64,000 nt of DNA from Heterostelium pallidum (lineage: Eukaryota): NCBI RefSeq assembly GCF_000004825.1, contig NW_008805086.1:965410-1029409 (forward strand). The letters run 5' to 3'. Each line of letters starts with the position of its first letter. Position 1 is the first letter of the stretch. Positions 54,501 through 57,500 of this stretch are shown here, one piece after another. A model generated the notes under the pieces. It saw only the letters and a list, made by a program, of their open reading frames with translations. It had not been told where the DNA came from and did no database searches. The position numbers and the translations under genes are program-made.

Positions 54501-57500
54501 GCATCAATGCATGGTGATCCCTTTGAGGACATGATGAGAGCGGTGCGTTTAACTATCACCAATCTCCGTGGAATGAATATTAAATTCAACATTGTCCAAT
54601 TCGGTGATATTTTCGATTGGTTATTCATTGAACATGTTCCACCAACTGAAGCCAATCTTCAATTGGCATGGAGTCATATCAACTCGCTCCGTCCATCCTA
54701 TGGTGGTACCGCACTTCACCTGCCATTGCAATCGTTGATTCTCATGTCTGACCAAACTCCATCAAATCGTCCACACAATATAGTGTTGTTCACAGATGGA
54801 CAGATTGCCAATCCACCACTTGTTCAAGCACTTATTCGTAGATCTTCATCGAAATGTCGTCTCTTCTGTTTCGGTGTTGGACCGGATGTATCACGTCACC
54901 TAATCAAGTCACTCACTCGTTTGGGCGCAGGTTTCGCAGAGTTTATCACACCCAACAAACGTCCATCGACCAAGAAAATCATTGCTCAACTTCAACGTAC
55001 AGTAGCTCCAGCGATGTCCAATGTTCGCGTTGTCTTTGACTCGAGCGACAAGATCACTCAGACACCTGCCACCATCACCTCTATCTTTAGAAGTGAACGT
55101 CAGGTTGTCTATGCTTTCAGTGGTATCTGTACACGTGCAACACTCACTGCTCAGGCGCCAGGAGGTGGACTCATAAGCAATGCCGTTCACACACCAGAGA
55201 TTGGATTCCTTCGTGGCAATCTGATCCATCGTCTGGCAGCAAGATCCATGATTCGTGAGTACAACGATGGTAGCTATTCAGATTCAAAGCTACAACACGA
55301 CTTGATCAAGATGAACAAGAAGCAAGACATCATCGACCTCTCAATCAAATATTCCATTGTCACAGAGTTTACCTCGTTCGTGGCCATCGAGAAGCGTGAG
55401 AAAGGTGAAGTCGCCAAACCTCAACCAAATATGATGGAAATCGTTGAACAAACAGTAGTCGACACACTCCCTTATATTTCTTTTGAAAAGGAGGGAGAGT
55501 CTGATGATTCCGGTGACTCTACAATGAAGACAAAGAGAAGACAGCTGGTTGATTTGATCAAGGAAAATCAGGAGCAATCTACCATTGAAAGAAAGTCAGA
55601 ATCACTTCGTGTATTCCATCAAATTATTGATACCTATGGTGAATACGACTTTGAGGAGCTCAGGCTATTCGGTCAAACCATCGATACCATCGTAGATGAA
55701 TTAGTTACCAAGTCGATTGAATCGGACACCACCACCGACAGCCAAGCAAAGATGACACCATTGGCGTTGAGTCGTGCCAAGCGTAACAAGCAAAAGGCAT
55801 TGGATGAATTGAAGTATCAATCACATGGTTTGTTGAGATTGGTTGAAGCATCACTATCCACATGTGTCCGTGAGGAATCAAAGATTGTAGTACTCGAGAG
55901 ACAATGTGTTATCAACGGTATCTTGGCTGGCATAGAAACAAATGAGATAGCCAAGAAAGCCATGATGGATAAAACCAAGCAGTTGTTTGAATCTACCTTG
56001 AAGAGATCCGAGAAACTCCCACCAACCAACGCAATCAGATTGCATCTCGCTTACTCGGCATCACTATTTTACAAGCGTATTGGAATGTTGGACCAAGCTT
56101 GTTCAATCTCCAAAACTTCTTTTGACGATGCCATCAGTGAATTGGATTGTCTAAGTGAAGATTCCTACCAGGAAGGAACTCTCATTATGCAGTTGATTCG
56201 TGACAACCTCACAGAGATGACAGAGGAAATGGAAATCGATATGGAACCAAGTTTAATGAAGACACCAACCAAAGGAAAGTTAGAGCAGGTTACAAACGAG
56301 CAACCTCTTGAAGACAAACCAAGCTCAAATATTTGGTCACAGGTTGTAAAGAATCTTGTTGGTGATAAGCCAACGCTAAAAAATAAACCTGTTCTCGATT
56401 GGGCTATGATCACTGAGGAGGATGAAGAACTTAGGTCAATTAATCGTGCCGATGAAAAAGAAAAACGTGGAGATAAAGATAGAGATAGAAGAGATGAAAT
56501 AGAAGATAGAGAAAGACAAAGAGAAAGAGGAGGTGAAAGAGAAAAAGCAAAAGAAAGAGATGTTAGAGATAGAAAAGGGAAAGGAGATGTAAAGAAAGAG
56601 GCTTTTGAACTATCAGTAAGAAGAAGCAGAAGTAGAAGTCCAAGTCCACCACGATTACAAGCACAAAAAAATAGAGTTAGTTTTGGTGGTAAAGCAGGCA
56701 GGGGTGGTAGAGGAGGATTTTCTGGAGGAGAATTATCAAGCGGAACAGAAGAGCGTAGATCAAGACACGTGAGTTTATTTGATTCCATGGATGGTGTACA
56801 AGAGTTACCACCACCTCCTCCAACCACAACCCCAATAGTTACTCCTACAACACCAGCTCCCAGACCAACAAGTGGATCGAAAGCACCTCAAAAAACATTT
56901 TCATTTGGTGGCGGTGGCAATGTCGGCAATGGCGCACCTGTTGGAGGTCTGATTGGCAGTCCATCTAACTTTAACAATAACAACAATAATAGGGATGGTA
57001 GCTTCCAACATATAGGAATGGCATTCGGATCTGCTCAACCCACCCCATCTGGATCACCATTCTTGTCAACATTTGGCGCAGCGACAACAACTTCGCTCTT
57101 TGGTACTTCATCAACTTCATCCTCCTCATCGTTTGGTGCTTCACCAACCTCATCTTCCTCACCTTTTGGTCAAAGTTCAACACCATCAACAACATATGGA
57201 TTGAGAAGTTCGACAGTCTCAACAGGAAAGGCTGCACCTGTAGAGAATAAACCTACCTTTGCTTCTTCTTTGTTTGGAGCACCCTCCCAACCTGCTGCAC
57301 CACCAGCACCTGCGCCAAAGGCACCTGTGACTTCGTGGAGAGCACCTTCATCATCTCCTGCACCACCACCTCCACCACCAGCAGCGTCAGGACCACCTCC
57401 ACCACCAGGCGCACCATCTCCATTAAAACCGACCGTTCCAATTAGTGGTATGCTTAGAAGATTATCATCGAGCTCTCTTTCACAAAGCATTTCACAAGAA

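Follow-up and report, generated by a model that had tools for sequence, protein, structure and literature searches.

What does a 14-3-3 domain do in the middle of a PARP4-like protein, and does it still read phosphopeptides? The question is raised by a gene in a 64,000-nucleotide stretch of contig NW_008805086.1 (positions 965,410 to 1,029,409 of the forward strand, hereafter the window) of the dictyostelid Heterostelium album PN500, formerly called Polysphondylium pallidum. The gene product (EFA82859.1 / XP_020434976.1 / UniProt D3B7W6) is annotated as a 'type A von Willebrand factor domain-containing protein' and as a 'Poly [ADP-ribose] polymerase'. Canonical 14-3-3 proteins are free 30-kDa dimers, whereas this domain occupies residues 1294–1524 of a 2327-residue protein. 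The analysis described here identifies it as complete but degenerate, with only its last helices close to the canonical sequence. To judge by its substitutions, it has very probably lost phosphopeptide binding, and we lean, by a small measure, towards a role as a docking module that works independently of phosphorylation.

A complete but degenerate 14-3-3 domain

An earlier note, made from the DNA letters and their translations, had recognised a 14-3-3-like domain within a PARP4-like protein, and the 14-3-3 peptide quoted there is present exactly as written in the translated open reading frame (ORF). The Pfam 14-3-3 profile (PF00244), whose failure to match had been named beforehand as refuting the assignment, matches ORF residues 746–956 (nucleotides 55581–56213) over profile positions 7–220 of 223, at a score of 81 bits (E=1.3e-22; gathering score 33.2). 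The 162-residue segment of the note alone also matches this profile (E=7.2e-23), and a phmmer search against all PDB sequences places 14-3-3 zeta first (E=7e-24). The phmmer alignment to 14-3-3 zeta contains the upstream parallel to ESKVFYLKMKGDY that the note had described, and it pairs a 19-residue stretch of the embedded domain with ESKVFYLKMKGDYYRYLAE of 14-3-3 zeta.

The domain consists of nine predicted helices, A to I. The coordinates first given for it, 55740–56225, lie inside the domain and are too narrow, as they cover only helices D–I, its C-terminal two thirds (Table 1). Only this part had been recognised because identity to canonical 14-3-3 rises along the domain. When the H. album residue is compared with the canonical majority residue, identity is 20% in helix A, 0% in helix B, 33% in helix C, 21% in helix D, 24% in helix E and 17% in helix F, and it reaches 50% in helix G, 59% in helix H, 83% in the H–I turn and 74% in helix I. 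The superposition that the note had proposed supports the assignment. An AlphaFold2 model of ORF residues 735–975 (mean predicted local distance difference test, pLDDT, 83) contains nine main helices and superposes in Foldseek on 14-3-3 zeta (5d2d_A) with TM-scores of 0.82/0.86 and a root-mean-square deviation of 2.6 Å over 228 columns. The best 50 PDB matches listed by Foldseek are all 14-3-3 proteins. The predicted fold is thus that of canonical 14-3-3 (human zeta, PDB 1QJB / 5D2D).

The host protein is PARP4-like (a clade 5 PARP) by its domain order and its homologues. Pfam finds PARP_reg, PARP, VIT, VWA_3 and 14-3-3 in D3B7W6, in this order, and a weak match to BRCT (E=0.22) that is clearer in the Dictyostelium purpureum orthologue. 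With the region from the C-terminal part of the catalytic domain to the 14-3-3-like domain as the query, the best 120 matches are all PARP4 or PARP4-like (36–50% identity, E down to 1e-176), and the top homologues are animal PARP4s, with 40–44% identity. The vWA domain is followed by an extension of the ITIH-like region that is common to all PARP4s and was matched in 216 PARP4-like proteins. In a pairwise alignment to a carnivore PARP4 (P0050), the His-Tyr-Glu (H-Y-E) residues of the ADP-ribosyltransferase (ART) domain are all present (His of LYHGS, Tyr of GIYF and Glu of DDEIVVF), and by these residues the ART domain is predicted to be catalytically competent. Human PARP4 (vPARP) comprises BRCT, WGR, HD and ART domains, an ITIH-like region, a disordered region and an MVP-interaction domain (Suskiewicz et al. 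2023, PMC10450202). It has the same order of PARP_reg, ART, VIT and vWA, and in both proteins a long disordered tail precedes a C-terminal domain.

The combination of PARP4 and 14-3-3 is itself already published for the same species. The accessible text of Perina et al. 2014 (DNA Repair 23:4, PMC4245714) reports that VIT-vWA PARP4-like proteins of Polysphondylium pallidum, D. fasciculatum, D. purpureum, Acanthamoeba, Branchiostoma, sea urchin and Capsaspora carry an appended 14-3-3 domain, and notes C-terminal actin- and ubiquitin-related additions. There the appended domain is treated as a signalling 14-3-3, and a 14-3-3/MEK-type link is suggested. What is added here is that the phosphate-binding residues are lost and that the domain precedes a tail built from copies of further conserved host motifs. 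Neither a literature search nor the accessible text of Perina et al. 2014 yielded the pocket loss, the gradient of identity from helix A to helix I, the truncation of animal copies to helices F–I, the drift of the groove next to a fixed helix H and turn, or the tail motifs.

Loss of the phosphate pocket

Residues are numbered as in 14-3-3 zeta, and the substitutions agree among a MAFFT alignment with 39 canonical 14-3-3s, the phmmer PDB alignment and hhalign. The R-Y of the phosphate-binding triad, described in the note as unrecognisable, is indeed gone: R127 and Y128, which together with K49, R56 and a conserved groove characterise canonical 14-3-3, align with Gly and Ile. K49 and K120 are replaced by Asp and Glu, respectively, N173 is replaced by Ser, and R56 falls into a deletion. 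Since no phosphate-pocket residue is left and two of the positions have become acidic, the embedded domain should not be a phosphoserine reader, and the loss of phosphopeptide binding that the note had raised is very probable. The four residues K49, R56, R127 and Y128 are restored in none of the four dictyostelid orthologues, and no basic residue stands at the phosphate-pocket positions of any of the five dictyostelid proteins or of the environmental sequences P0032 and P0056. For a domain that is no phospho-reader, the 14-3-3/MEK-type signalling link, as given in the accessible text of Perina et al. 2014, is unlikely. Elsewhere in the groove of the H. album domain W228 is replaced by Met, and L216, I217, L220 and N224 are kept.

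Constraint across embedded copies

Conservation was counted across 15 embedded copies from amoebae and animals. The residues of the peptide groove drift and are conserved in only 0–33% of the copies: G169, N173 and V176 in 0%, E180 in 7%, L220 in 13%, N224 and W228 in 20% each and L172 in 27%. Helix H, the H–I turn and one face of helix I stay fixed in the same set. Y211 is present in 100% of the copies, A188, L203, D204 and R222 in 93% each, and F196, D197, L206 and E208 in 87% each. L216, I217, L220 and N224, retained by the H. album domain, are not retained by its closest relatives, so the near-perfect match of its helix I reflects in part retention in this species and not a constraint on the family. 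The canonical peptide groove, as far as these alignments tell, lies outside the family-wide constraint, and binding of unphosphorylated peptides in the groove finds no support in them.

Distribution and origin

The orthologues of the H. album protein were found by an exhaustive search, in which D3B7W6 itself is 100% identical to the translated query over the query. When the domain alone was the query of a word-indexed protein search, the matches were all free-standing 14-3-3s and included no PARP4, which is an effect of the index. Four orthologues align over the whole query at 52–56% identity: those of Cavenderia fasciculata, Synstelium polycarpum and Dictyostelium purpureum and one dictyostelid-like sequence. 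In all four the domain is full-length and passes the Pfam 14-3-3 gathering score (93, 66, 47.5 and 52 bits). The note had asked whether orthologues share the same insertion; the domain is no insertion, as it is a conserved component of the family, present in these four orthologues and, as a remnant, at the equivalent position in animals. Identity among the five dictyostelid proteins is 40% in the domain and 21% in the tail. Their most conserved element is the H–I turn (83%), and helices B (53%) and D (56%) are also fairly conserved, perhaps because of a use that is specific to this lineage.

PARP4s of amphioxus and a hemichordate give Pfam-significant matches at profile positions ~124–223 only, and iterated searches add gastropod, coral and chiton PARP4s with a C-terminal 14-3-3 remnant. 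The remnant is placed right after the post-vWA extension, as in dictyostelids. Only ~35 residues separate this extension from helix G in these animal PARP4s, and these proteins therefore keep helices F–I alone. The 14-3-3 domain is most likely an old inherited part of clade-5 PARPs, ancestral to PARP4.

Modules in the tails of other PARP4s

The region between the vWA and C-terminal domains of PARP4s carries further copies of host proteins. These were counted in 193 PARP4-like tails, with manually entered query sequences for actin, ubiquitin, calmodulin and VAMP2. A 14-3-3 module is present in 28 of the tails, ubiquitin in 22, a motif resembling the tail of ribosomal P-stalk proteins in 12 (including gastropods, oyster and a fish), an actin fragment in 11, heptads of the RNA polymerase II C-terminal domain (CTD) type in five, a VAMP SNARE motif in three and calmodulin in two. 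The actin fragment always comprises residues ~2–73 (P0003, P0005, P0008, P0009, P0015, P0033, P0252, P0265, P0267, P0291 and P0333). Its identity to actin reaches 90–100% in the D-loop segment alone, residues 34–56, and the flanks drift. In the pearl oyster protein (P0005) it leads straight into a near-complete calmodulin. The ubiquitin copies, found in gastropods and others (e.g. P0007, P0021, P0022, P0027 and P0379), keep LRLRGG, K48 and R42, and in Gigantopelta (P0007) a proline directly follows the GG. Proline at this position should resist cleavage by deubiquitinases. In P0032 a VAMP-type SNARE motif is followed by a hydrophobic, transmembrane-like C-terminal stretch. The actin, ubiquitin and 14-3-3 modules have in common that canonical sequence is kept in a sub-part only.

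Possible functions of the embedded domain

The reading to which we give a somewhat better than even chance is that the embedded domain is a phosphorylation-independent protein-docking or scaffold module, inherited with clade-5 PARPs, which positions a partner beside the ART domain. It is favoured because phospho-reading is lost, the groove drifts, and helix H, the turn and helix I, which stay fixed, form the region through which true 14-3-3s make contacts that do not depend on phosphorylation. ExoS and ExoT engage 14-3-3 with their ADP-ribosyltransferase domains, which contact helices 8 and 9 and the intervening turn, and this interface suffices for complex formation and overlaps that of Bmh1 with trehalase (Karlberg et al. 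2018, PMC6141617). The binding region in these complexes (14-3-3 beta–ExoS/ExoT, PDB 6GN0 and others; Bmh1–trehalase) is the part conserved in the PARP4-embedded copies, an overlap that for ExoS/ExoT is defined by structural element (helices 8 and 9 with the turn between them) and not by residue. What 14-3-3 binds in ExoS and ExoT is an ADP-ribosyltransferase domain, and the H. album protein itself carries an ART domain. The embedded domain lies between the ITIH-like VIT-vWA region and the long disordered tail. We infer that it would dock a partner through helices H and I and their turn without phosphate, and that the docked partner, whether a substrate or a bait, would be held next to the H-Y-E ART domain.

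Several points weigh against this reading. Many of the residues kept in helix H and the turn could simply form the folding core of the last hairpin and be no binding site. The AlphaFold2 model had canonical 14-3-3 sequences as its input alignment and is biased towards their fold, and its pLDDT in helices A–C is only 53–74. For these two reasons the N-terminal half was tested separately: helices A–F of the five dictyostelid proteins are colinear with canonical positions 6–159 in hhalign, a match that is weak but in register (E=6e-4). The monophyly of the embedded copies is moderately supported and could be produced by long-branch attraction. In a neighbour-joining tree of the helix F–I region (45 canonical and 15 embedded sequences, 500 bootstraps) a single split separates all of them from the canonical sequences with a bootstrap of 331/500, which becomes 402/500 with only the seven least diverged embedded copies. 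Every embedded copy is nearer to the canonical consensus than to the embedded copies of other lineages. A single ancient fusion is better argued from the unvarying place of the module, immediately behind the post-vWA extension, than from the tree. Finally, two iterated searches found no trace of the module in vertebrate PARP4 (~85 sequences), which makes it dispensable for core PARP4 function.

The absence from vertebrates and the strong degeneracy of the module in several molluscs (16–26% identity to the canonical consensus) are what would be expected of an evolutionary relic or an inert helical spacer that binds nothing of its own. We regard this as scarcely credible, as Y211 is invariant and eight further residues are kept in 87–93% of the copies in amoebae and animals alike, and as conservation among dictyostelids is roughly twofold higher in the domain than in the tail. 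Hardly more probable is the alternative raised by the earlier note, a heterodimer with genuine 14-3-3 that would tether a functional phospho-reader to PARP4. The dimer interface of 14-3-3 is formed by helices A–D. The prediction of a nine-helix fold in dictyostelids, N-terminal helices included, and the conservation of helices B and D among them are consistent with such a dimer, but these four helices are the ones with 0–33% identity to the canonical sequence and the lowest model confidence, and they are apparently absent from the animal copies. Dimerisation with genuine 14-3-3 as a conserved function thus appears unlikely from the alignments.

Two other readings make the tail part of the explanation. 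In one, which we consider doubtful, the tail is an adaptor hub whose modules, the 14-3-3-like domain among them, recruit the normal host partners of their parent proteins (G-actin/Arp2/3, translational GTPases, CTD-binding factors and importins), which PARP4 would modify or load into vaults. Modules related to actin differ by lineage, with the D-loop fragment in animals, elements like WH2 and VCA in dictyostelids, and actin or actin-binding domains in the accessible text of Perina et al. 2014; the difference suggests a conserved need to engage actin. The P-stalk-tail motifs are also kept from dictyostelids to gastropods and a fish. However, a 14-3-3 whose phosphate pocket is gone and whose groove is not conserved would be unable to bring in ordinary 14-3-3 clients, and the actin fragment presumably cannot fold as actin. 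In the other reading, held tentatively and with a low chance of being right, the 14-3-3-like module is bait in an array of host-protein copies that attracts toxins or effectors of pathogens, which would then be ADP-ribosylated, sequestered or sensed. As improbable as this reading, and part of it, is the proposal that the module is the oldest member of such a 'mimic array' in PARP4. The tails do carry copies of 14-3-3, ubiquitin, an actin fragment, calmodulin, VAMP SNARE, P-stalk and CTD sequences, with canonical sequence kept in sub-parts only (the actin D-loop, LRLRGG of ubiquitin) and with a set of modules that differs between lineages. We take the 14-3-3, ubiquitin, actin, calmodulin, VAMP and P-stalk modules to correspond to known cofactors or targets of toxins, for instance 14-3-3 for ADP-ribosyltransferases of the ExoS/ExoT type. 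Plant NLR proteins contain integrated decoy domains, copies of host targets that are fused into a larger protein and whose set varies between lineages. The likeness is one of analogy only, in the lineage-varying host copies, as PARP4 is not an NLR. Positive selection in mammalian PARP4 is confined to the positionally equivalent disordered region, for which a host–pathogen interface was proposed (Daugherty et al. 2014), and the contacts of ExoS and ExoT with helices 8 and 9 need no phosphate. On the other hand, the LDLA helix of ExoS lies in the groove and touches Tyr residues that the embedded domain, in which the groove drifts, no longer has. Actin, ubiquitin, calmodulin and 14-3-3 are highly expressed and are therefore also the likeliest donors of retrocopied exons, and the 14-3-3 and P-stalk modules are old and stable, with no fast turnover. 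Beyond Daugherty et al. 2014, the literature search found no proposal of, or supporting data for, a decoy, mimic or toxin-related role of PARP4 tails.

The functions of PARP4 and of the vault particle have been obscure for decades. A conserved helix H, turn and helix I, positive selection in the equivalent region of mammalian PARP4 and tail copies of host proteins in amoebae and invertebrates together lead to the testable hypothesis that PARP4 tails recruit partners or act as bait. Were the mimic array real, PARP4 and possibly vaults would have an old role in innate defence, kept from amoebae to animals.

Features of the gene and of the tail

The coordinates of the gene, its domains and the motifs of its tail are collected in Table 1.

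Table 1. Features of the PARP4-like gene of H. album, in window coordinates; residues of the 14-3-3-like domain are numbered as in 14-3-3 zeta.
Feature	Position	Strand	Basis and remarks
Whole gene, PARP4-like protein	51509-58655	+	tblastn of the 2327-residue protein (P0241) on the window
Exon 1	51509 to ~51637	+	tblastn
Exon 2	~51702 to 53230	+	tblastn
PARP (ART) catalytic domain, split by intron 53231-53308	52950-53540	+	Pfam PF00644 on both exon translations
Intron, GT..AG	53231-53308	+	Borders read from DNA
Exon 3	53309-58655	+	tblastn
VIT domain	53730-54062	+	Pfam PF08487, E=5.6e-36
vWA domain	54477-54944	+	Pfam PF13768 / PF00092
Post-vWA extension of ITIH-like region	54945-55496	+	Stops shortly upstream of the 14-3-3-like domain; mean identity in dictyostelids 73%
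14-3-3-like domain, predicted helices A-I	~55551-56243	+	Pfam, phmmer, AlphaFold2, Foldseek
K49 to Asp	55683-55685	+	MAFFT alignment; hhalign, same register
R56, in a 5-residue deletion	just downstream of the K49-equivalent Asp codon	+	MAFFT alignment, hhalign
K120 to Glu			Alignments
R127 to Gly	55917-55919	+	phmmer alignment to 14-3-3 zeta, MAFFT alignment
Y128 to Ile	55920-55922	+	phmmer alignment to 14-3-3 zeta, MAFFT alignment
N173 to Ser			Alignments
Helices G, H, I and H-I turn, sole canonical-like part left	56031-56225	+	Per-helix identity, family-wide conservation
RS stretch and RGG box, disordered tail	56619-56729	+	Read from translation; not conserved in orthologues
FG-repeat-like low-complexity region (SFG, LFG, PFG, TFG)	56895-57287	+	By eye; Pfam Nucleoporin_FG weak, E=0.061, below cut-off
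Poly-proline	57363-57407	+	Precedes WH2-like motif
WH2-like motif	57558-57605	+	Pfam WH2 weak, E=0.23; conserved in 4/5 dictyostelid orthologues
Seven RNA polymerase II CTD-type heptads (YSPTSPS), perfect or near-perfect	57621-57767	+	Pfam PF05001 (Rpb1_R)
WASP/SCAR-like C and A elements (LSSALFSRR ... SDDDWDDD)	57825-57926	+	By eye; conserved in 4/5 orthologues
Three P-stalk-tail-like motifs	58014-58046, 58137-58172, 58272-58307	+	Pfam Ribosomal_60s, E=6.9e-4, profile 51-87/88, below cut-off
C-terminal region, ~115 residues, presumably globular	58310-58652	+	Located where vertebrate PARP4 has its MVP-interaction domain

The P-stalk, CTD, WH2/VCA-like and FG-like elements all lie on exon 3, downstream of the 14-3-3-like domain. 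The CTD heptads score 35.9 bits in Pfam Rpb1_R (cut-off 20.3, six stretches), and runs of them also occur in C. fasciculata, D. purpureum, P0245 and the 2302-residue protein P0269. The P-stalk-like motif was compared with SDDDMGFGLFD, which we take to be the canonical tail, and it is present in two to four copies in every dictyostelid orthologue. The D. purpureum tail exceeds the gathering scores of both Ribosomal_60s (43.7 bits) and Rpb1_R. The dictyostelid orthologues also have the WH2, C/A, CTD and P-stalk-like elements, in some cases at other positions.

The poly-proline, the WH2-like motif and the C/A elements (57363–57926) together resemble a VCA module, with the CTD heptads in between; the likeness of the C and acidic-Trp elements to VCA sequences was judged by eye. 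The RS stretch contains RSPSPP (nucleotides 56619–56651), which fits the mode-I motif RSXpSXP and was considered as a ligand in cis of the 14-3-3-like domain. It was rejected in view of the lost pocket and because the orthologues lack this stretch.

The C-terminal ~115 residues have no Pfam match, and a profile–profile comparison of the dictyostelid C-termini with the vertebrate MVP-interaction domain in hhalign detected no similarity (probability 0.35%).

The 14-3-3-like segment is contained in a single uninterrupted ORF of 1769 codons, 53346–58655 (+). The DNA of the window is AT-rich and eukaryotic. The GC content of the gene (0.42–0.43, compared with 0.26–0.34 nearby) had raised the possibility of horizontal transfer or contamination, which was rejected because other parts of the window reach 0.44 (1–2000 and 36001–38000) and the gene encodes an annotated H. 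album protein. On the opposite strand the gene is flanked by two ORFs, 48974–50005 (−), of 343 amino acids, and 58712–59497 (−), of 261 amino acids.

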